Shown here: piece by piece, positions 11,969-64,000 of the stretch
How positions within the stretch are numbered: position 1 is the first letter of the stretch
Layout: each line of letters opens with the position of its first letter
Source of the DNA: Fimbriosthenelais zetlandica
Taxonomy: Eukaryota
DNA: 64,000 nucleotides
Direction of reading: 5' to 3'
NCBI GenBank assembly: GCA_977030845.1
Contig: OZ365110.1
Coordinates: 28,954,001-29,018,000 of the forward strand
Made by a program: the position numbers and the translations under genes
The notes under the pieces: model-generated
What the model saw: the letters and a program-made list of their open reading frames with translations, nothing else
Told to the model about the DNA's origin: nothing
Databases searched by the model: none

Positions 11969-12092
11969 ATGGATACCACGAGTTATCAGCGTATAGTGCA
12001 GAGTTCAATTAAATTGACTTTAATTTTAGTCGTCCTTACCACACCTGGACGCGGGTTTTCACTACCGCCCACCACCCAACCGGAATCCCATG
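11969..12092 (+). CDS. Exon 1 (coding part) of SUEL-CUB-sushi type-I membrane receptor: signal peptide MDTTSYQRIVQSSIKLTLILVVLTTPGRGFSLPPTTQPESH
   Basis: ATG at 11969 in AGAAATGG context; hydrophobic core IKLTLILVVLTT; ends G|GTAAG (phase 1). It joins the next exon in frame (G+GT=Gly, then VKEYC). Confidence 0.8.
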
Positions 12093-22347: not shown

Positions 22348-22632
22348 GTGTCAAGGAGTACTGCCATCTCGACACGTTCAATGTCTCCTGTGGTCACAAT
22401 CACGTTATAGTCATGGAAACGGCACGCTACGGGCGGATGGAAGTTGGGGCATGTGTACGGAGGAATTTAGGTTACCTGGGATGTTCTATGGACGTGCTAC
22501 GTTACATGGACATGCGGTGCTCAGGCAAACACTCCTGTAAGGTCAACATCGTGGACCTGGCGAAAAAAGAAATGAAGCCTTGTCCAGAAGATGTAACATC
22601 GTACTTGAAGGCCAGCTACAAGTGTGTGGAAG
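22348..22632 (+). CDS. Exon 2: SUEL-type (galactose/rhamnose-binding) lectin domain
   Basis: Polypyrimidine tract + CAG acceptor at 22345-22347; G|GTGAG donor. Translation EYCHLDTFNVSCGHNHVIVMETARYGRMEVGACV...GCSMDVLRYMDMRCSGKHSC...PCPEDVTSYLKASYKCVE has the cysteine spacing, the A-x-YGR motif and the YLxAxYxC end of SUEL domains. 285 nt, phase 1-1. Confidence 0.92.
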
Positions 22633-25857: not shown

Positions 25858-26259
25858 TGCGCTCTGGGAGCCGGCATAGCTGCCAACACAAGAAGCATGT
25901 AGCTGTACCTGCCACGCCCGGCTTCCTCGCCTCAGTCACAGCATCAGAGTATGGCTACGGAAGTCCCAGATGTCCATGGCTTATCCAAGCTAAGCCAGGA
26001 CAAAGAATAAACATCACACTACATAACTTTGCCAGATATCATTCCAAAAACACTGGCCTGTCCAGTGATCAAATCAGGCCTGATGCTTGTTATGAATTTG
26101 CTTCTGTGAGGGATGGAAAACCTCACAAAAATATAGTCGGTTGTGTCGGAGAGGAGCGGAAGACTCATGTTTTCACTTCAACAGGTCACAGTGTGGAAAT
26201 AAATGTGCTTGATAGGATTATATCAAGTGAAGCTGTGCAGTTCATGATTGAATACAGTG
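25858..26259 (+). CDS. Exon 3: CUB domain
   Basis: ttctctccttgcag acceptor; G|GTGAG donor. Translation ...GFLAS...GSPRCPWLIQAKPGQRINITLHNF...CYEFASVRDG...VFTSTGHSVEINV...FMIEYS carries the CUB hallmarks (CxWxIxAxPGQRIxIT, FxSxGxSV, FxIxY). 402 nt, phase 1-1. Confidence 0.92.
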
Positions 26260-28132: not shown

Positions 28133-28285
28133 TCATTGGTTGTCCTACGATCAGGGCACCACTTGGTGGTACCGTCAAGCGTGAGGGACAACATGTGACC
28201 ATTCGTTGCAACCAATCAGAGGAGGTCTGGTACATGACTTGTCGTGACAACCATTGGGTCGGCGAACAGGGCAACTGTAGTCTAG
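28133..28285 (+). CDS. Exon 4: sushi/CCP-like domain
   Basis: tttctattccag acceptor; G|GTACG donor. Translation VIGCPTIRAPLGGTVKREGQHVTIRCNQSEEVWYMTCRDNHWVGEQGNCSL has 4 Cys and the C-x-x-x-x-W pattern. 153 nt, phase 1-1. Confidence 0.88.
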
Positions 28286-36167: not shown

Positions 36168-36221
36168 CCGGGAGTTGGAATATCGGGACAATATTTGGCA
36201 GCACCGCGTCATTTCCTTACG
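36168..36221 (+). CDS. Exon 5: short stalk exon AGSWNIGTIFGSTASFPY
   Basis: Long pyrimidine tract + TAG acceptor; G|GTAAGT donor. 54 nt, open, phase 1-1; links sushi to TM in frame. Confidence 0.8.
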
Positions 36222-37475: not shown

Positions 37476-37563
37476 GAATACTGGTTGTTGTTGCCATAGG
37501 TGTCGCCCTTGGAGTATTCTTTGGTGGGCTTTTGCTGTTTGGAATAAACATTTACATGAAAAG
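37476..37563 (+). CDS. Exon 6: transmembrane helix GILVVVAIGVALGVFFGGLLLFGINIYMK
   Basis: tgctttatttttcag acceptor; AG|GTAAG donor. About 23 uncharged hydrophobic residues followed by basic stop-transfer residues. 88 nt, phase 1-2. Confidence 0.9.
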
Positions 37564-39413
37564 GTAAGGACATTTTTTTAGACGTTCATGTTTCGGTAAT
37601 TAACCATAATTTAACATGACCATTTGTCCGCCCTTCCAAGCATAGAGGGGTGCAATACAAGTATAGATCTATACATACTGTATTCCTATCATGGACTATA
37701 CTCATTAGGCTTATGAACTTTTACCCCATTTATATATAGTTCAATCGCCAGTGTTACTTTGAAAAAGCAGTGCAATTCATTTAATAAGTCCTTTGTGACA
37801 GCAGGCCTTTCTAAAGCACTTCAGAACCTTTTTGGCACCCTGATTGTATGAATAAAACACAATAGTTGGAGTGGTGCCTTGCTTGTAGAGAAACACCTGT
37901 ATTACCCATCGATCCAGCACGTCTCCACGCTAAGAGAGCAGCACTTAAAAAAGACTGCCTCACTGGGCGATTTTTTCCAGGCCACCGACGATCAAAATGA
38001 ATCAGCCACAAAGTGACATTGATCCATACTATCAAGGGTCACAACAACCGCCCACACAGAAATATACTACAACGAAAATAACATTACCATTCCCCGGTAT
38101 TGACAGACAGGGTAAAAATCAGTAGTCTGCAGGAATATATCCAACATATTCCAATATTCCTATAATATTATAGCCACTTCCTGCTGGAAGAATAATGGCA
38201 AGTTGGACTATGGTACATACTTCTTGTATAGTCCATTTCATATTTCATGGGTCAAATATATTGTGGACTCTTGTCCACCTCTGTGGCATTACCGATCAAT
38301 TTCTTGTCTCGATATCTTGTCCACACCCTTCGACGTACATCAAAGTGCCACTTTTTCCGGCTTGAGCCAAGCTACATAATAATTATACTGAATAATTGTT
38401 AGTATTTTTCTATAAAACATTGCCTTAAAATCTGCACTTTAGTACAGAATCTTGTTAAAGACAATGAATCCAGACAGGGGAATGGGTTAATTAATTATTC
38501 TTTACATGGCGACGTTTGCTTTCGCTCTGATCGCCTCCTTGGCATGCACAAGGGGTCAGACTTGGCACTGTTATACAAAGTGCACTCAAGAATGTAAACA
38601 TTTAATGAAAAATGCAGGATCTTCTTTTATGATTTCGGGCTGATATACAGAGGGACACCTGCTAGAATTGGTTCTTTTGTGCCCAAGTCACAACTGAGCA
38701 GAAATGAAGAGAGCCAATTGCCTCTGTGGCGATCCGGCGTTCACATATACACATCTGTTAAATGCCCAGAACAGAGTCTTGTATATCCGCAGTACATCTT
38801 TTTCATTTGACAGAAAGCACTATATGTTGCAGGCTGGAGTTTGCGTTTGCCTTTAAGAGGTGAAGCGTTTTGATGTTGATTCCTACAGTCACCTTTCTTC
38901 ATGGATGGATGAGTTGTCTGTTAGTAGAAGGATCAAACCTTCCAACTCTCTCTATAAGAAGGTCTGAAGCACCAGCTCTGATGATAAACTTGCCTCATCC
39001 CCTTAGGCTATAGATGGAACCCTGGGGAGTACAGACATGTCTAAAACAATTAATCCTTGCTAACACATCAGCCATGACCCTATAAGCTTCCAGTCTTCTT
39101 ATTTATTCTGTTTATAGTGGGTTTTTTGAGAGACTTTGAAGAGAATAGCCTCGTTCAGGGAGGCATAATTGCACTGCAACACTCTAAAAGACGATCCTGT
39201 GGTGCATCAATTCAGACGGTCCTTTATAGCCGTTATGTACCATCTCTAAGCATAATGCTTAATTTCAAGGCTATATATTTTCTTTCGGGACGGTTCGAAG
39301 CAGTAATCTCAGCAGTAAAAGTCATAAATTGTTTATCAAAATGTGCCTTTGCAATACACTTTTTCCATTCCTGCTAGTTTCTTATGGAATTTCTTCTTTA
39401 TTTTTGCCGACAG

Positions 39414-39774
39414 GTCGCGCCATGGACCCACACCGCCCACCACAAGAACCATCGAGGAGGTCTCGGGAACTGACAAGCTGATGGGACCTCCAACTGAATC
39501 TGGCTACTCCTCAGATGTTTTCATTAAATCCAGAAACAGTGGTACATCTACCCTGCCCCTACATTCCCAGGGCGATGAGGGGCTAGAGACTGTCAATGTA
39601 CGGGAATACAAAGGACGAAATGGCTCTGAATTAGCACATGTGCATGTACAAAGTGGTCTAGGAGGTGGTGGGGGAGGACAGTATGGTAGGGCTGGCTACC
39701 CAGTACATCAATACCCCACAGGGACATTAGGGAGACCAGGGGCCCATTTGTATGAAAGTCCTAAATTTTCATGA
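39414..39774 (+). CDS. Exon 7: cytoplasmic tail (R)SRHGPTPP...GRPGAHLYESPKFS*, ending at TGA 39772-39774
   Basis: T-rich tract + CAG acceptor at 39411-39413; AG+G=Arg puts it in frame with the ORF-track ORF 39343..39774. Summed exon lengths are 124+285+402+153+54+88+361=1467 nt = 488 aa + stop. Confidence 0.85.
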
Positions 39775-40476
39775 TGTTTGAGTGCCGGAACCCACAAGAA
39801 AAACAAAGAAAGAGTGGAAGGTGGGACCGGCAAGAGAGAGAAGCCGATCCCAAAACCCCACTGCGAAGCCATCGTTAACAATCAAAAGCCACACAGACTG
39901 AATGGCAAAGCCACATCAACCGCAATTGGCCTTCCCGAACCCTACAGGGAAGAAGTCGCATATGAAAACATGGGAAAACCCGAGCTTGAAGCCAACAAAG
40001 CTAGCATTCGATTTCTGACGTCAGAGCACCAACGTGTTGTCAATGACAATGCGAAAAACTTGGCATTGGACATGAAGAGAAATGCTGCCAATGATGGGTA
40101 TTACATAAACGATGCCTCATCCCCTTCTTCATTTTCCTCCTCCTCTTCGTCTTCTTTTCTCGGAGCGTCTACTGAAATTCACAAAGGCTCCTCTGGGTCC
40201 GTGAGTAGTGGATCCCTGGACATCCACACGGTTACCAGGGAGAAAATGGAGAATGTTTACCACGCTGAACCGCAGCTAGGTACGTGTCCCAGACCAAAGC
40301 AGAGCCGATCTCCAATCACTAATCCACATCGATTTGCTCCTGATATCCCTCCTGCTCCTGAATTGTCTGGCGACAAAGCCAATATTGTCTACACCAATAC
40401 AGCCCCACGTGAACCCGAAGGAGGCACATATGAAACACTGAAAGAAAATATTTACCGAAATATACACATTGCTTAA
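39775..40476 (+). CDS. In-frame 233-codon extension after the TGA (candidate stop-codon readthrough or alternative tail)
   Basis: Same frame as exon 7 (39415, 39775 and 39778 share phase); no stop until TAA 40474-40476. Contains YENM, YIND, YTNT, YETL, YRNI motifs, a Ser-rich tract and Pro-rich segments. Confidence 0.65.
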   Translation, partial: CLSAGTHKKNKERVEGGTGKREKPIPKPHCEAIVNNQKPHRLNGKATSTAIGLPEPYREEVAYENMGKPELEANKASIRFLTSEHQRVVNDNAKNLALDMKRNAANDGYYINDASSPSSFSSSSSSSFLGASTEIHKGSSGSVSSGSLDIHTVTREKMENVYHAEPQLGTCPRPKQSRSPITNPHRFAPDIPPAPELSGDKANIVYTNTAPREPEGGTYETLKENIYRNIHIA

Positions 40477-41140
40477 CTCCCCTTGTCTGTCCATAGAACA
40501 GTGTGGATAACCCCGAGAAGGACCGAAAGTGGCATGTGTATCTTATCCCCTTGGTCCCATCATTATAATGCTTAATGTGTGCACTTTGGAAGTAAAATAA
40601 TTGTGTAAGCATTGTCAATGGGTGCTAAACCTTACAGATCTGTATATATAATGTGTGTGTGGATACGTTCAGCGGGGGACCTATATCAATGCTTGGAATA
40701 ACACGCAAATATTGAACGCTCTGCTTCATCATACTATTCTGGTTCGGTCCATTTGAAATGACATTATGAGGAGCCTAGGGAAATATAGTCATTTCAAAAT
40801 GAAAACTCTGGTTATACCGGTGTTGGTGGGGGATGCGTATTGACTGGCTCTAACTCAGCCACCGGCCGTGGCTTGCTATCTGTGGGTGTAATATAGAGAA
40901 ATGACTGAGGCCAGGGCCAAGGATCTTAAGCCTATCAGGCTACAGTCGTATATCAGAAGCAAGGGAAAGTGGTTATCATTTAATGGGGAAAAGGCGAGAG
41001 GCATGTGAAGCCAGCAGTTAGGATTTGTGTCTGTGAAAGCAACCAATGTAAAGAGAGAAATGATGAAGTTGTCAACCAAACCAGAAAAATATCATATAGA
41101 TACAACTCATGAATCAAATACCGATTGTTTGAATGCCATA

Positions 41141-41146
41141 AATAAA
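41141..41146 (+). terminator. First AATAAA after the receptor's stop codons (candidate poly(A) signal)
   Basis: Hexamer visible; no AATAAA seen between 39775 and 41140. Confidence 0.35.
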
Positions 41147-42200
41147 TTGAAATTTCAACACAAATGAAGTTTTTAACAAATGGACAACAGAAGAAAGCAC
41201 GCCCGGAAATTTTCGTTAACATACTGAAAATAATTTTTAGAATACCGCTACCCAGCAGCACAACCTACCAAGCCAGAACCGATGTGTTTTAAGTATTTTG
41301 TTCCAAAAGAAATGAGGATCAATACTTGATAGTTCCTACTTAAGATGGTTCTATTATGTAGATACAACAACATTGTTTCTTAAACTGGGAAATTCTGCGA
41401 TGTATAGCTTTTATCCAACTGCATAACCTCCCCATTTATGGATCTTATCACCCGATGGACCAACCTCAATTTGTAAAGGGAAACAACCTCACAAAGACAT
41501 GTGTATCTATATTTTTGTTAGATAATACATTTGCTATAGAATAGCAAATACAATGTGTATGTTCACCCTTGTAAAAACAAAGCCTGTACGGCTTGGAACA
41601 AATATCGATGGCTTCGAAATGGAGTTTGTAGGGAATCTGCAAATAAAAATCCACAAAGCCTTGTGATGTTGGTGTATAATTACAAGCAGCTGCTTGGCAG
41701 ATGTAAAATACAAGTCCTTGGGAAAGGAGCTGCTCCCAGTGAGTCAAACAAACTGCTCGCTGCGTCAGATAGATGAGCACTGGACCATCACACTCTATCC
41801 AAACTGCTCATCTGGAGTGAATGTAAATAGAAACTAAAAGGCTGGAGTACTCGTGTGCAACTCAGAAAAGGCGATTTACACATTGGATCTACCTAAAACA
41901 GTCTATATATAAAATATACCTTCATTGATGCGCCGTGATGTTGATGCCGTGATGTTTTGAACAGAATGTTCCCAAATGGATATGAATATAATATACTTTG
42001 TACAATAATTATCACTTTCTGTATCAAATAAATTTGTGACAGAAACACTTGTGTGGAGCTCCTTTCATTGCCCTCTTTAGTTCTATCAGTTGAAATGTAG
42101 TGCGAGTGTGCCACCCGATATATATGGCACGAGCGTCATAAGTGCTTATAGCATAGCACTCCTGTATACATGTATGGCACTACAAAATGGATCAGCGTAC

Positions 42201-42210
42201 AATAAATAAA
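42201..42210 (+). terminator. Overlapping double AATAAA followed by a GT/T-rich stretch (candidate distal poly(A) signal)
   Basis: AATAAATAAA then gtctatgtgtatagtctttc. Confidence 0.4.
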
Positions 42211-43613
42211 GTCTATGTGTATAGTCTTTCGCTGAAGTATACGAGAAAGTAAATGTGTTAAAATTAAACCTAAAATTTCTATCAATAACATTCTCATAAC
42301 TGATACGGTTTTCTACTGAAAGATGATCATTACAGCAATAACCTGTAACATCGAGTATGGTATACAGGAGTGTTACAGTGATGTAAGGCAGAATATAATC
42401 TATACAGCTTATCTGATGTCCTAGGTGTCGTATCTAGTTATGGAGAATGAGAGCTGGGAGACTGCAGGCATGGTCTGATTTCTCTCAAGTTCTACCATCC
42501 CCCTATTACCCCTGAACATGATAAATGGTGGGCCTCCCCACCATGTCTTATCGGTATTATATATGACAGAGCACAGGAAATCTAATTCATGTCAAAATAA
42601 AACTTCATTACATGTAAATTCCCAGCGTAAACATCCTACCTGATATTGACCAAGAAGTATAGAAAAGTCTTGGTTTCACCTCCAACTCAATACTCCATAT
42701 ATAAAGGCAATTGCCTTCCCTTAATAGACACTGCTTCAATCTTACAATCTTCACTTGATTTGTGGCTCATATTGAGTGTATACAATCCTTTCAATTTCTT
42801 CAAATCGATCAATAACCATTGCGAATGAGGTTCGCTGGATTCTACAGTCCCTTGTGGGTTTGTAATTTAAGCCCAATAGTCTATTTCAAGGACCGTACAT
42901 TTCCCAAACGCATTCATCCTCATTAAAAGAGAAATATTTTAAGAGTAAGTTCAGGAGACCTTAAGATGTAGTAGTTTTCCAGAGACGAGCTTAGTTGGGG
43001 GAGTGGACAAGCCATATAAAGGTTGTCTGGATTTAATCAGCAGAGGAAAAGACCACTCAGTGTTCAGGTCGTGCTTAAATTTGTAGAAATCCCTGGGGGA
43101 ATTAAGGTCAGGGATCGGTACAAATGGCCTTATAGAGGACAAAGGTCAGGTGGGAGTGCCCCTACTCACGGCTCCCAAACAGATGTATTCATCCGCGCTA
43201 CACGGCTAAATCCTAGGAGGCCAGCCAGCCCGATGATATTTCTACAGGACTTTCTTTTTTCGATGAATTCCATCTAGGAATTGCCCAGCATGAATATTTC
43301 ATAAAGTACACTCGTCTGCTGCAGCTTATATCGACTATATCTTGGTGGTACATGGACTATATCTTGGCGGAATAAAGGGTGAGATTCATTCATCATGACA
43401 GAGATTATGCCCTATTTTGTTAGTCAAAGTCTTCAAGTCTGTCCAGACTTAAGCATTTAGCTATGAAAAGTCATATACATGCAGATATCTTGTTAGAACC
43501 CATGGGGCAGACCGACCTACTTCCACATGATATCTCATGTATTTAGGTGTAAATAACCTCACATTTAATCTGATGGGTTCATTCTGTGTCATGATCACAT
43601 GGAAGGTTAGAAC

Positions 43614-44009
43614 GGTCACATGACCCTTACCCATTGTCCACTGCTGATGACGTCACCTCGCCAACTATCGGTCAAGCTGATTACTATGATCATGAGGGAT
43701 GCTCTGGCCTTGGCTGGATGGAAGGGTGGGGGAAGTCTGCTTTAAAGCATACCTTAATTGGTAAATTGGAAGCGGCATCAGCGATCATAATCATGACCCT
43801 GCCTGGCTGGGAAAGCGACATCGTGTGATATGAGAGCAAGCCTGAGTAATCATGGCGACCTGGGACTGCCATCTCTGACCACGTGTCACCTAAAGTTGAC
43901 CAACGGTCACGCCACCTGCCACAGGGTTATGGCACCAATTGTTTGACCCTCCTTACAGAATGACCTTCAATGACCTCCAGCTGCCCTCGGGCCCTCTCCT
44001 CGCTGACCT
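43614..44009. promoter_or_regulatory. Nuclear-receptor half-site cluster with a perfect DR4, plus CRE and E-box (candidate enhancer)
   Basis: 11 GGTCA/TGACC pentamers in about 400 bp; TGACCTtcaaTGACCT at 43961-43976; TGACGTCA at 43648; CACGTG at 43880. Confidence 0.5.
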
Positions 44010-44959
44010 CTCTGCGCCCTTTTACGATCATAACACGAGAAGGCCATTTCGGACATTAGGGTCAAATTTCCAATCTGAGAAAGGCTCGCAAACCTATTAT
44101 CTCACGAGGAATGGCCGCCGTGCCAATTTCTACTCGATGGCAGCGGAGGAGCAGGATGGGGTCCTTACAGAAGCCCGGATAAAATATTCAACTGCAAGTA
44201 CTACTCACACTGCGCCTAGGCTTCGTCATCATGCCAGTCAGCCTCCTCAATCTCATTTAGATCATATTAATGGAAAAGCATGGCATTTCATTTCATTTTA
44301 TGAAGGAATTAGATCAAGACACAACAAAAAACATTGATTGCACCCCAGGGGGAGATGGCAGTGGTGGGGAAGTTGTGAGAGTCGGGCTTCAATTCCCCTG
44401 ACGGTCGTCATGAAATCTGTGTTGGAGGATTTAAATTCAGATCTCCCAGGTTGAAGGCTGATAATGCTGGGCCTCCCACGGAAGACTGAGTGTAAGGGAA
44501 AAAAGCTTAGTTGTCTCATTAGGGCCGGGCTACTGGTGGAAGCTTATTATCTGATATCTCATTTTCAAATTATCAACGCTCGGGTGTCACATAATTTATA
44601 TAGGGGTAGATGGGGATCGCCCGAGTAAAGGCAGGCTGGAACTAAAGTAATGCATCCAAGAGAACAGACCTCTCCAGGAAAATTATTAAGACAGTACACA
44701 ATAGTATGGTGGTGGACGTCTCAAAATAGCCTATATCTCTCATGGGTTAGATTTCAGCCTGTAAGTGAGCAATGTATTAAACATGATGGTTCATTCAGTA
44801 TTCTTGTTCTTTTGAGTCTACTCTTTTGTAATCAATATAAATACAGCTCGTTGGCTGAGAAGACAGCCATCAAAGATTGACCTAAGTACCTGCCAATTCC
44901 GTATCTGAGTTCAATATAAGCATCACACAAATGTGTTAGCAGACATTTAAGTATAAAGA

Positions 44960-45330
44960 TTGAGTGGATATGAACTGTGATGTCCTGCCTTTGAAAGACC
45001 TGCATTGCTAAATGTGACCAATTCAACACAACAGAGAGCATGTATCTCATCTTGGACTGAGAGATGGAGAGCCTGCTTTGCGCACAAAGAAGAGCACCTC
45101 CTTCCTGACTAGAGTGGGAATCTGAGCTACTCTCATGTCCAGTCGAGCTTCTAATGGCCAGCAGTTTTTTCTCTCAGATGGAGACCTTAGTTGGGTGGTG
45201 GCGGTCGGGTGGGAGAGGGTGAATGGGGGTAGGCTTTCATTTTGTCAAGACAAAGAGAATGGTTGTGGTCAGCTCGCATCAGTTGGTCTTTTACCAAAAA
45301 CCATCAGATGAAATGGACGCTGAGATGGTT
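44960..45330 (-). mobile_element. Possible decayed DIRS-type tyrosine recombinase C-terminal fragment
   Basis: Minus-strand GHESSSDSHSSQEGGALLCAQSRLSISQSKMR resembles G.D...YSxHSxRxGGAT; catalytic R appears as Q (CAG, one CpG transition from CGG); an upstream KTN*...TIL resembles KTDQ. Confidence 0.33.
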
Positions 45331-47675
45331 GGTGGACACGTCATGGTCAGCGAGGCTTTCTCCAGTTGCCCATCTTGATATCCTGAGCCTAATCATGCCT
45401 TGAAAGAGCTTCATATCCGGAAGACTGCATCAGGCTTCAAAGCATGAAGCCGTGGTCGGGGTTTAGGGTGGGGGTGAGAGTTGGGGAGGTGGGGAGTTCG
45501 AAAGGGCAAATCCAATCTTAGACCACAAGAAATGACCACTTTCCAAACCCATCTAATAATATAGGAAAGACACGCTCAGATGGTTCAGAGACATATAAGT
45601 ATGCCATTTTCTAGCAGTATGAAGTATAATGTAATTTTGGGCTTGTAATAAATACTACTATGTCAAATGTTTTCTCACTTATACACATCTGACAAAGATT
45701 AAAAAAGGTCATAAGACCTCCAGTTAGCTCGTTCCTTGGTATACAAAACACTTGGTATCTTTGTCACGGCTATTGAATGTGATAGTTTTACAGTGATTGA
45801 CATTGAAGTAACATTCTGGCAATGTGGCCAGCAGTGTGGTTACATGTAAGTACCAATAATCTTCTTGGGTGGGTAGAGTGGGATGTGTGGCATCTTACTT
45901 GAAAGCAATGGCGGAAGGGTGGGGTGATTGGGGGCGGGGGCCGAGAGATGTGGAGAAGATAAGGCCATCCTGAGCACATGGAGCAGCTCTTCCAGTTAAG
46001 CCGATGGAGTATCAGACTAATAAGGAGGTCGTCTGAGAGAGGAAGGGTAATGACTCATTTTGCTACGAGTCGCTCCTCCCCAGCTCCTCATGGTCCGAAT
46101 GGCTGTCTCCCTGCTTAGCCAGAGTAAAAACATCAAGCCATAATGAATTCTCTGATGGGTTTTACACTGGGTGGGCTGCAGCTCCTCTCTTTCCCCTCCA
46201 CCAACCATCCTGTATATTCATATATTTTAGTCGTATAACATTAGAGACCGGACACATGGCTTTCTGGCATGGACCATTCTTTGTTGCTAAGACGCTGCGA
46301 AACTTGAGCATTCCTTGTCTAATTCCATCAAGGATTAATAATAGATTTTAAGTAACATGAATGTAACACGAGTTTTCTTTATGCAAGACCTTTATGTATA
46401 TGGGCTGGTCTTAACCATGATTGATGAAGTCACATCTGACCAGCCAGTGATGAAAAGAAAGTATCAATTCATGGATGGTTAAACTATACCTTTCAGGGAC
46501 ATAATTGATATGAGTAAATAATTTGGCGTGCTTGTCCGATGCACTTCAAAAGCACATTACAGGCACTGCCCCATATCGAGTATTACAAGTACTCCCCTGT
46601 GGAGTCGTAGCTCCAGTGACATTAGCTATATCGGGGCCTGGTCGGTGAAATGGTCGAATATGCATCATTCCTCATTTCCATGAAAAATTGATTAGTTGGT
46701 AAAAATTTGATGGATGGGTGGTCCGAGAAGGGACAGGCAAATTGACCGGCAGGAAAGTCTTAGGGGCAGTGGAGAATGTACTCAGGAAGCTATGCCAACT
46801 GGAAATCCACTTTAATATATATTCCCAGAGTGTAAAATACCACACACTTATAAAACTTTAAGACCAACATTTGCACTCATGCTTTAGCATTGATTTCATT
46901 CCCATAAGACTAACATATAATAGAACCCAACTAAATCATCTTTCAGTTCTGGGTTTTATTTTTTCCCCGAAGGAATATGCACAGAAAAGCCACAGATGGC
47001 AAATTTCACCAACCTGTTTACTCAACCACTCAACCAGGACTCAAACTCGGTTGACAAATCGGCTTAGAGGGAATACATCCCTGTAAGCAGGGGAGAAGAT
47101 TTACTGCGTATATATGGATGGAGTGCCATCCCATATGAAAGGCGAACTTCTCCGACCCATCATAAGCCATGAATTCTAAGCAAATCCCTCAGTGCAGACT
47201 CATCAACTTTGCTGACAGACCGATTGACCAGAGCATCTCACATTTCAAGGCGATGTCCCATTAGCAAGATGAAGCCAGTGCACTCTGAGCCTCTGTCGAT
47301 TTTCCAAAAGCCACAGTGTGTGTATTGTGATTAATGTGAGAGAAATGGTAAATAGCGGGGTGAGACCAGACCGTCGTGGACTGTCCCTGTCTCTAAACTT
47401 ATACATCAACTTCCTGCCGACAACGGGCTCTCAATTACACTGCTACCAAACGTTTCTAATGTCGCAATATGGCTGGCTCTACCAGACACACAGACATCCA
47501 CACAGCCACAGAGGATTTGATATTTTAATGAACCATAAACACAAAATAATGTGCAATATTAGGGAAATTCATTCAAAATACAGCTTTGCATCATGATGAT
47601 ATCGACATTTTTATTTGCTCTAAATCTTCTCAAGTAAAGGAGATGAATCTTCCATTCAATATTTTAAGTAAGATT

Positions 47676-60700: not shown

Positions 60701-62348
60701 AGTGTATGGAACAAACGGGTAGTTCAACTCGTCCTACCAAATGGGTTTGCATGAGGTTCAGGCTGGATGAATCTGATTCATCCTATTTTCATCTCATAAC
60801 ATCACTCCATCAGTTCTTATAATATTTTTTTATCCATGGTGCTTTTTCTCCGCAGTTGAATGTGACATTTGAGAGTGTTTTTGTAAGAATTCCAGTCAGG
60901 AGAGTGAGGGAGAACGGGAGATAACGTTTTTGAATAGAGCCCGGTTTGACTGACGGGAGTCAGTGATATGGAACCGCTGGATGGAGAACTGTCGGGCGTG
61001 AGGGTTATAAGGAAAAACGGCGGCAGGATAGGAGAAAAGATGGAGATGAGCGAAAAGTCGACACAAGAAAGGCGAAAAGGGTAAAAGAAGACCGAGAAAT
61101 AACTCAACAGTAAAGGTGACGTTTAAGGAACAAAAGAGAGCGTCTAAAAGACAGATAAGGGCAGAGTCAGAGATAGTTGAGTCTCTAGTCGCCTTTAATT
61201 CCATTTGTTGAAGAACATTTTTAAGGACAAAGTGCCCCCTCCCTACATTTCTTTCCTATCAGTGTCCAACCAGTATGATCAATGTGGCGTAGGAAATGGG
61301 CGTATCAGATTATTTCAGGTATTCGTTAGTTATTTATGCCAGCAGTCGTTTGCTGTTGTTTGCCATCGACAAGAAGCCAGATCGATCCCTCTGATTGGAA
61401 CCTCTCCTCCTTCCCTTCCTTCTTTCTCTATCTCCTCCCCCTTCTTCTCACTGCCACGTGTCATCCTTCCCTTCAGTACACCAGAGACGCCCCCCACCTC
61501 CCTTCCCACCCCCCTCAGCGGAAGATCGAAGTTTCCACCGAGCTGAGGCCCCCAGCGGGCATTGGCAACACTGCGGGTCAATTTAAAGCGATAGGCAATG
61601 AAAAGGCAAGTCATTACACGGCGAATAATCGCACGACTCGTGGTCATATTGGAAGAAGGAAGGCTTTTTTTCATCTACTGATCGAGTCTGGCCTGTACAA
61701 ACAAGCATTGCCAGCATAAAGCATCGAGACGTGATGACAGAAGCGACCCCTACACCATTGCCAGCCAGGGAGAGGCCATGGGGGCATATAGACAGGTTCT
61801 ACAATAGAAGGAAACACTTAGATTAATACTTCTAATATATCGCTAAAAATCAATATTTATCGACCAAAGGGATGCGAGAAATATCTTTGTTACGACCAAA
61901 ATGGAATGAATCATTTCCCATATGATGATTTCTCGGAAAGATTATCTCCTCGCTGAAGGTTAGCGTAGATATATCGTGCAGCATAAACCATTCTCTTTTA
62001 TGGAAGTTCCAGCATATTTGTTGGAGTGTTATCCTAAGTATCAGACATTTCCTGAATTTGAAAGGAAGGGTTATAATTTACGTTCTAGCCAATTAGCTGA
62101 TTTAATTGCTAATTGTCCAAATTTTGGAAAGGACGGAGGCGTTGAGGGTGTAAAACCTCCAGTTTGGAAATTCATTCCACAAAGGAAAAAAATGATTCTG
62201 CAGTATAGAGATATTCAGAGTATGGAATAGCTATCCTAATGGCTTACCATACGCCCTCCCACCCTTTCACCGTCACCGACGCGCCCCCTTGTGGGAAGAA
62301 AACGAACCGTGCATCCCAATCACTCAGCGTTCACTGGGCGTGTGCCAT

Positions 62349-62510
62349 TCAGTTGGCGAGCATTGTGGAGTAAGCTTCACTCGGAGAATTCTCTCCTCTC
62401 CGTTTGAGACTGCTGCTAGTCCTACTACTAGTACTACTATTGCCGCAACCACCCTAGTAGTCACCCCGCAAACTACGACCGACCCAGTGGTTGTGGAGTG
62501 GGAAAGAAAG
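62349..62510 (+). other. Putative non-coding first exon of a downstream + strand gene
   Basis: Initiator CATTCAGTT (TCAGTT 62349-62354) preceded by CCAAT; CpG-rich; no ATG; ends at donor AAG|GTACGA (62511). Confidence 0.4.
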
Positions 62511-64000
62511 GTACGAATTCCACAAAGCACGCACGCTCAGAAAAATTGGACCCATTATATTCATCCAAATCTTGCAAAACTAATTACATACATTGGATTA
62601 TCTTTGTGCATCGCTTAGAAGGTCAAGACAACTGGATTTTGTCTTTTTTTCACACTGGTCGAGAGAGCTGTTGCTAAGTGGGTAACTATGGGAGAGATGG
62701 AGATTCAAGGTGGAGTATTTTCTAGCCTCAATGGGAGGAGGAGCAGGAGTAGGGTCCAGACCACTTTTGGAAATGGATATAGATATGGACTTCTCGTGCT
62801 CTTGTTGCATTTGGTGCCAGCAGTTTCACCAGAAGAGAGAAAGGGTAAGTATGATGTTTGATGCCTGATGGATGACCTTTTTAACTGAGGTGTGCCCATC
62901 AGACCATGCATGTTTTCATCAATTATAATTCTGTGGCCCTGTGGAAAACCTTATTATTTATGATCCATGAAAAATAAATTGTCCTGTCATACGTAAGTGA
63001 ACATTGTGTCTGATAAAATAGTACTTAAGGCATATTTAAATACCTTTTTTTTCGCTGTATCATTTTGGAAGTTACTTCAAGTGATCTTCAAGAGCGTTCC
63101 ATAGATTAATTTTAAAAGAATAAAAAATAAATTCATTAAAACTTGCATTTTCAATTCAATTAGCAGTAAACGGTGGCATATGGATTCCAAATCACTGACT
63201 CAAATACCGTAGTCGGCCACTTTTGCAAAGTGCTAACAGGTGATACTTGGGATTTCCATTTTAGGAATAGATGGAGGGTGTGAGGGAGATCATACCAGAG
63301 ATTTTTCATGCATCCATGCAAGTTAATAAATAAGCGGCGTGGTTGTGGTTGGAGTTTTGCCCTTCAAACCTCCTTGGGCTGGGCTTGTTTTGTGTGACTA
63401 AGGGATCCAACTATTTGATGGATCCAGTAGTGGCTCAGTGGTAGAAGCAGTGGGAGAGGAAGAGGGAGGAGCACACATGTTTGCCTTAACTGTATGGAAC
63501 TCGGTGGTATGCACGTGCTGATAGTGCTAGAGTGGCTGTTCAACCACTGGTATAGGTGGAGTTCCATCTATACTCCTGGGTAGGGCACTGGGAACTAACA
63601 AAATACTTATGAAAGTGGGGCTTCCTCGAAAACAATCCACTAAATGGAGCCTAGGTGATGTTCAACTGCATCTCCCACATCAGTGCCACGCATATGAATG
63701 TGAAAGTCAACTGCGTGTTGCATATCATATAGAAACGCTGTAGAAGTGCTAGAGATAGGTTAAATCACCACGAAAAAAAATCCCTTATATGGAATGGACC
63801 TATAGCTCATCCAATTTTTGAAGATTAAGGTACAAAGTGTCCCAGAGAAGGGTATAGTCCAGGTAGGCGCCAGAGATGTACTTGAGGAGCTGCTGGAGGA
63901 TCCCATACATACCAGAGGGATCCGGAGGAAGGGCAGGGTGAACATGATGTCTAGAAGGCCGGGTGATGGATCCTTCAGGATCTAAGTGGTAGAAGGTGGT

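Follow-up and report, generated by a model that had tools for sequence, protein, structure and literature searches.

A receptor gene in the window (the whole 64-kb stretch of DNA that was analyzed) ends in a UGA stop codon that is followed by a long, open, coding-like frame and by a short RNA segment with two mutually exclusive folds. Readthrough of this UGA, counted over all the forms that it could take, is probable. Among these forms we tentatively prefer programmed readthrough helped by the stem directly behind the stop (stem A) or by the pseudoknot built on it, and we hold this model with a little less than even confidence. The original prediction had named stem A as the cis-element that drives readthrough. 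Readthrough is indeed the best explanation of the locus and the geometry of stem A fits, but at equilibrium another fold of this RNA is predicted to prevail over stem A, and splicing to an acceptor at 39948 is a rival that has to be taken into account.

The receptor gene and its stop codon

Seven exons, the seventh running from 39414 onward, have AG/GT borders throughout and, when spliced in frame, give 488 codons followed by the UGA (Table 1). The gene is intact, and the encoded 488-aa receptor is composed of a SUEL lectin domain, a CUB domain, a domain that we take to be sushi-like, one transmembrane helix, and a cytoplasmic tail. Among the Atlas clusters closest to the CUB exon, Annelida is the commonest group, and the gene is probably annelid. 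When the genome itself (a 447-Mb assembly of 79 contigs) was searched with the CUB exon, 56 further matches were obtained, and the family therefore has at least 57 copies. Full-length relatives sought through the CUB exon were not found at E 1e-10, and no paper on a SUEL, CUB and transmembrane receptor family was found in the literature searched, whose coverage lies outside the subscription journals.

Table 1. Positions in the window of the exons, the stop, and the RNA and splicing elements behind it
Feature	Position	Strand	Details
Candidate first exon with signal peptide	11969..12092	+	Assigned from splice sites and frame; sole candidate
SUEL lectin exon	22348..22632	+	Pfam PF02140, E 4.3e-10
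CUB-domain exon	25858..26259	+	Pfam PF00431, E 2e-4
Cys/Trp-rich exon, presumably sushi-like	28133..28285	+	Without Pfam match
Short linker exon	36168..36221	+	Assigned from splice sites and frame
Transmembrane exon, phase-2 donor	37476..37563	+
Part of last exon, conserved cytoplasmic tail, end H-x-YESP-x-FS	39414..39771	+
UGA stop, candidate readthrough codon	39772..39774	+	Context UCA-UGA-UGU
8-nt spacer TGTTTGAG	39775..39782	+	Ends in weak GAG acceptor-like site
In-frame extension, 233 codons, to TAA 40474-76	39775..40476	+	Low-complexity
Stem A: 6 bp, AA/A loop, 5 bp, 25-nt purine loop	39783..39832	+	-17.3 to -17.9 kcal/mol
Hairpin B: 39813-17/39858-62, 39822-26/39848-52, 39828-31/39843-46	39813..39862	+	-21.4 kcal/mol; predicted equilibrium fold; excludes A
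Shared central arm, pairs upstream (A) or downstream (B)	39821..39832	+	Best duplex partner of 39781-39800 within 39801-43500
CCACT, partner of AGTGG 39813-17; pseudoknot second helix and base of B	39858..39862	+
Phase-2 CAG/G acceptor-like site, exon start 39948	39930..39948	+	Score 6.0; frame kept

The SUEL-CUB-sushi-like receptor genes are clustered (on C10, C1 and C25 of genome G000), and their tails share the motifs H-x-YESP-x-F and Y-x-ELD. Short forms of the tail, which end at the first of these motifs (L007, L009, L019, L068, L075 and the gene studied here), occur beside long forms. The next tandem paralog has its CUB exon about 19 kb past the window end, and a 140-codon frame near that end (62196-62618, forward strand), with a Thr-rich, mucin-like stretch, may be one of its early exons. 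Directly behind another paralog (L021, G000:C1:23403859-23413858, reverse strand) there are two single-exon frames of 237 and 389 codons, which by eye look like rhodopsin-type GPCRs.

The UGA stop is old, judging from the comparison of tails within the family. The same residue is terminal in all four orthologous tails, which come from other assemblies and share 52-85% identity when compared at the protein level, and the paralogs L007, L009 and L019 share that end point. Nine paralogs run on past YESPKF, and in eight of them the stop position is occupied by Arg; Arg, Cys and Trp are the residues usually inserted in UGA readthrough (PMC13517186). The stop has an A at position -1 only and a U at +4, and it therefore lacks the leaky context of UGA-C with adenines at -1 and -2; UGA-U is no known strong leaky motif (PMC7026636). 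A leaky context is dispensable in structure-stimulated cases such as kelch (PMC3159437). A loose search for the pattern YESPxF gave counts at chance level, and orthologous DNA behind the stop was found neither in JGI metagenomes nor in GTDB contigs. The codons for YESPKFS also make a 9-bp hairpin (39751-39773) that ends on the U and the G of the stop codon and that a terminating ribosome would melt.

The open frame behind the stop

An open frame of 233 codons is expected from base composition with a chance of 1e-5 to 4e-7. The post-stop frames of the 35 paralog tails that were located have 0-67 codons, and not one is longer than 67. This set is composed of 12 tails found via the pattern and 23 from 40 regions of 20 kb, 17 of which were without a tail; five CUB hits were left out. 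We also scored the extension with a codon model trained on 32 paralog tails, which makes it a single-genome test. The first 57 post-stop codons score 12.9, a value that none of 190 UTR and 192 intron segments from paralogs reaches, and their T fraction is 0.12, compared with at least 0.25 in non-coding paralog segments. The coding-like signal continues up to the TAA and collapses beyond it. Over the whole extension the codon score lies under the paralog-tail mean, and against mononucleotide shuffles it is not significant (127/2000).

The extension holds eight tyrosines, several of them in signaling-like motifs (YENM, YYIND, VYTNT, YETL and IYRNI). An ATG in a strong Kozak context lies at 39970-39972, 65 codons into the extension, and the first AATAAA 3' of the extension is at 41141.

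A search of 1.84 billion protein representatives gave no homolog for the extension, though it did find the four orthologous first tails. This is a weak blank, because the libraries contain only genes predicted by prokaryotic gene finders, on contigs that are partly short. A search for tail plus extension among proteins of 621-2000 aa likewise yielded no homolog, and an ESM Atlas search with the extension had a top value of 0.78, which is at chance level. The genome search found no second copy of the extension or of the stem, and the extension did not match six-frame ORFs of the retrieved loci.

The same frame could be reached by alternative 3' splicing. The transmembrane exon would then be joined to an acceptor at 39948 (CAG/G) or at 39783 (GAG/T) to give a second tail, the UGA would never be read through, and the hairpins would be incidental or would modulate splicing. 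Both acceptors are phase 2 and match the phase-2 transmembrane exon, and the products would be intact proteins of 544 and 599 aa. In order to score acceptors we built a matrix from 66 family sites, 45 of them collected without base restriction and 21 restricted to CAG, TAG or AAG; a further GAG site, from L012, had been picked wrongly and was removed before the count. With its score of 6.0, the 39948 site lies above 10 of the 66 true sites, and none of 315 in-frame decoys in paralog tails scores as high. Seven of the eight tyrosines of the extension are behind 39948. This acceptor, however, leaves 57 open, coding-like, T-poor codons unexplained and requires that both tails share one genomic frame by chance. 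The 39783 acceptor (AG at 39781-82) coincides exactly with the start of stem A, but it scores -0.1, with only one of the 66 true sites lower, and GAG acceptors number 0 among the 45 sites collected without restriction. We consider splicing in place of readthrough rather unlikely; the 39948 acceptor may be used in addition to readthrough. Introns that would excise the stop itself, one of 33 nt (39750-39782) and one of 102 nt starting at 39681, were rejected as too short or as combining weak donors with a GAG acceptor.

Competing folds and the readthrough model

The pairings given in the original prediction were confirmed. The spacer occupies the 8 nt after the UGA, 39783-88 and 39827-32 are exact reverse complements, as are 39791-95 and 39821-25. 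The stem has 11 pairs, 9 of them G-C, with an AA/A internal loop, and 23 nucleotides of the 25-nt loop are purines. Within this loop, AGTGG (39813-17) is exactly complementary to CCACT (39858-62). With 11 bp, 9 G-C pairs and an 8-nt spacer, stem A has the geometry of known stimulators, which are G-C-rich, 10-14 bp long, and placed 8-12 nt behind the stop.

We compared this structure with several kinds of control. The fixed 60 nt after the stop fold into stem A with -17.9 kcal/mol and a z of -3.4 (2 of 500 dinucleotide shuffles), and a z of -3.3 or lower is attained by 5 of 400 random stop triplets from the 64-kb window. The exon was scanned in 54 windows: the two directly after the UGA have the lowest z values (-4.0 and -4.6), the next is -2.6, and none of 43 pseudo-stops in the same exon reaches a z of -2.5 or lower. 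When the encoded peptide is recoded synonymously, 4 of 1500 recodings match the stability of stem A at a spacer of 5-12 nt. By raw energy the stem is less unusual: 39 of 1500 random stop triplets have, at a comparable spacer, a closed structure of at least this stability, and 24 of 258 GC-matched stops have one equally stable. The minimum free energy of 99 nt falls within that of synonymous recodings (141/1000, with a codon table slightly contaminated by two out-of-frame exon pieces). None of the 35 paralog stops has a comparable hairpin (best -14.7). The structure behind the stop thus exceeds chance moderately. It had been put forward as evidence independent of the open frame, and as such it carries moderate weight only, with a chance of about 1-3% in the fairest controls and of 9% by energy in GC-matched sequence.

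The best paralog structure is that of L006 (G000:C10:8165544-8168566, reverse strand), where UGA-C is followed by a G-C-rich frame of 30 codons and the -14.7 kcal/mol structure has a 10-nt spacer. This paralog is a weaker second candidate for readthrough, judging from its sequence.

These numbers bear on a second rival, namely that readthrough is real but independent of the stem, being due to context or to a trans factor, with the folds as by-products of a coding stretch that is G-rich/C-rich and A-rich. Among readthrough candidates of insects, a structure is predicted in only 9-10%, and readthrough persists although structures are gained and lost (PMC5100048); the 9% obtained by energy in GC-matched sequence points the same way. 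Against this, the structure signal peaks directly after the stop and survives the synonymous control, and the UGA-U context offers no strong leaky motif among those known (PMC7026636). We regard stem-independent readthrough as unlikely.

The original prediction also took stem A as the fold of the region, and the predicted energies do not support this. Once the RNA reaches 39862, the 3' arm of A (39821-32) pairs with 39843-52 instead, in a hairpin (B) that is 3.5 kcal/mol more stable than stem A (-21.4 vs -17.9). In 39783-39870 the pairs of stem A have a mean probability of 0.006 and B wins; in every window containing B its pair probabilities are 0.6-1.0. Stem A is predicted to prevail only in RNAs whose 3' end lies before about 39850, and at equilibrium it amounts to less than 1% at 10-37 C in a nested model. 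Because folds A and B compete for 39821-32, the 90 nt behind the stop are best described as one arm with two partners.

The H-type pseudoknot that had been suggested is possible as a pairing. Its second helix, however, is the base of hairpin B, and our hand estimate of its energy, -18.3 to -19.3 kcal/mol, lies 2-3 kcal/mol above B, which is within the error of the model. Its loops are 17, 3 and 25 nt long, and the second stem has 5 bp, including two A-U pairs. We also looked at codon choice within the two folds. The stability of hairpin B is matched by 2 of 1500 synonymous recodings (in a window chosen post hoc). With the central arm held fixed, the synonymous choices are marginal in the 5' arm of A (155/3000) and strong in the 3' arm of B (4/3000), and none of 5000 recodings gives both folds.

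It could therefore be argued, from the pair probabilities of B and the stronger synonymous signal in its 3' arm, that B is the working element, either alone or atop a longer stem in which 39784-94 pairs farther downstream, and that A and the pseudoknot hardly form. The stems of alphaviruses and kelch enclose loops of 100-270 nt (PMC3159437). However, B starts 38 nt behind the stop, compared with 8-12 nt in the known proximal stimulators (PMC3159437, PMC13517186), and because this is too far by those precedents B is unsuited to a role at the entry channel; it is probably inactive. The long-range partner of the 5' arm that was sought by analogy with alphaviruses differs with each window tried (39933, 39971-85, 40093-99 and 40194-201) and is unstable, and it was rejected. 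A working element made by B is, in our opinion, quite unlikely.

Very unlikely is the view that the extension is untranslated today, being a relic of coding sequence or a frame left open by chance in the 3' UTR, or that the stop arose by a nonsense mutation confined to this genome or by an error of assembly. The extension is without a homolog in the searches made, and its overall codon score is under the paralog-tail mean. On the other side, a chance frame has a probability of 1e-5 or less, and the stop is common to four orthologs and three paralogs, which makes a private change or an assembly error unlikely; an unselected frame of 233 codons would presumably not survive such divergence. Finally, A-to-I editing of the UGA to a Trp codon, which the 5' G neighbor disfavors for ADAR, and recoding as selenocysteine are together highly improbable. 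For selenocysteine, the codon is a UGA, SEPN1 also has a proximal stem (PMC3159437), and the 9-bp upstream hairpin abuts the stop; on the other hand, no SECIS was found with Rfam on 38500-43500 or by a pattern scan on 39775-45500, and no paralog has a Cys at the stop position, as a selenoprotein family would be expected to show. The Rfam scan of 38500-43500 gave one snoRNA match, which is at chance level.

Programmed readthrough helped by stem A would proceed as follows. Most ribosomes would stop at the conserved UGA and produce the 488-aa receptor ending in YESPKFS, and a fraction would decode the UGA as Arg, Cys or Trp and produce a 722-aa form with 233 additional residues. The eight added tyrosines would provide more possible phosphotyrosine docking sites, and the C-terminus of the shorter form would be masked. 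With the UGA in the A site, stem A would stand at the mRNA entry channel and slow termination, as has been described for the stems of alphaviruses and kelch; spacers of at least 8 nt are thought to set a stem at the entry channel (PMC13517186). In this position stem A could offset the non-leaky UGA-U context. Because B is more stable on the same 3' arm, stem A, alone or as A plus the 5-bp pseudoknot, would be a minority or kinetically favored conformer. It would fold first in transcription and behind each readthrough ribosome and would then relax to B, the conversion passing through the shared 5-bp helix.

More speculative, and in our estimation unlikely, is a two-state cellular readthrough switch in which the 12-nt arm toggles between a stimulatory A (or the A pseudoknot) and the more stable decoy B, with the shared 5-bp helix as a toehold. 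If such a switch exists, the share of receptor that carries the 233-residue, tyrosine-rich tail would depend on temperature, on the traffic of ribosomes, or on a protein that binds the purine loops of the RNA, and readthrough could come in bursts, since A would refold first behind each readthrough ribosome. The competing hairpin leads to the prediction that removal of B would increase readthrough. If the model of stem-driven extension of a receptor tail is true, it would bring this mechanism to annelids, in a compact 90-nt element that is ready for reporters.

Comparison with known systems

Readthrough stimulated by RNA structure has been described in viruses and in a small number of insect genes. 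The receptors EVA-1 and EVA1C are single-pass proteins that carry a SUEL lectin domain and whose tail has a tyrosine motif, and to our knowledge no readthrough is known for EVA-1. Compared with these receptors, the family described here combines one SUEL domain with a CUB and a sushi-like domain and has at least 57 genomic copies.

Abundant readthrough was not found outside Pancrustacea (PMC5100048). For annelids, the literature searched contains one case of readthrough, the FVa/EFLGa neuropeptide precursor of Platynereis and Capitella (PMC3890597). It resembles the present gene in being from an annelid and in having a second coding region behind the stop; it differs in encoding a neuropeptide precursor, and no RNA structure is named in the accessible portion of that paper. 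In the genome studied here, L110 (G000:C19:40259859-40262899, reverse strand) is an exon of an FV-amide-type neuropeptide precursor, with about 500 codons and many R-x-x-FV-GKR repeats. Because only 8 codons, and no proximal stem, come after its TAG, it is uninformative as an in-genome positive control; no in-frame EFLG region was found within the 1.3 kb examined, an arrangement unlike that described for the Platynereis/Capitella precursor (PMC3890597). A genome search with the EFLG pattern was overwhelmed by matches to a repeat.

By its position and geometry, stem A would be placed with the 3' stem stimulators of kelch, alphaviruses and headcase and would work as they do. Drosophila headcase shares with the present gene a cellular mRNA, a stem-loop that lies 3' of the stop at a distance of no more than about 80 nt, and a long extension (PMC7026636, PMC3159437); it differs in having a UAA stop, in being experimentally tested, and in encoding another protein family. 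The likeness to Drosophila kelch, where the stem is also a prediction (Firth et al. 2011, PMC3159437), includes a cellular gene, a UGA without a following C, an 8-nt spacer, and one extra nucleotide close to the midpoint of the 5' arm. The kelch stem, however, has 14 bp and a 268-nt loop and is kept in 12 species, whereas the stem here has 11 bp and a 25-nt loop, comes from one genome, and faces a stronger rival hairpin.

The alphaviruses VEEV, EEEV and SINV have a UGA, a spacer of 8-9 nt, and a G-C-rich stem of 10-12 bp with an asymmetric bulge in the 5' arm (PMC3159437, PMC13517186), all of which recur here. The stem of VEEV in particular has an 8-9 nt spacer, 11-12 bp, and a single additional nucleotide midway along the 5' arm (PMC3159437). 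In contrast to the predicted stem behind UGA-U, the alphavirus stems follow UGA-C, enclose loops of about 100 nt or more, and have been backed by covariation and reporter tests.

Mutually exclusive hairpins that tune readthrough are described in the tombusvirus CIRV (PMC3234231), and in this respect CIRV resembles the A/B pair. That system is viral, and its switch lies 3.5 kb away and acts via long-range pairing, not on the proximal stem (PMC3234231).

The gag-pol stop of MuLV offers a likeness in its 8-nt spacer, in the possible H-type topology, and in the existence of alternative conformers (PMC3159437, PMC13517186). MuLV differs in its UAG-G stop, purine-rich spacer, 1-nt loop 1, and all-G-C stem 2 of about 7 bp, compared with UGA-U, loops of 17, 3 and 25 nt, and a stem 2 of 5 bp here, and the element described here is not a MuLV-type pseudoknot. 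In MoMLV the less stable conformer may be the active one (PMC13517186), and the A/B pair bears on the same question of whether minority RNA conformers are active in recoding.
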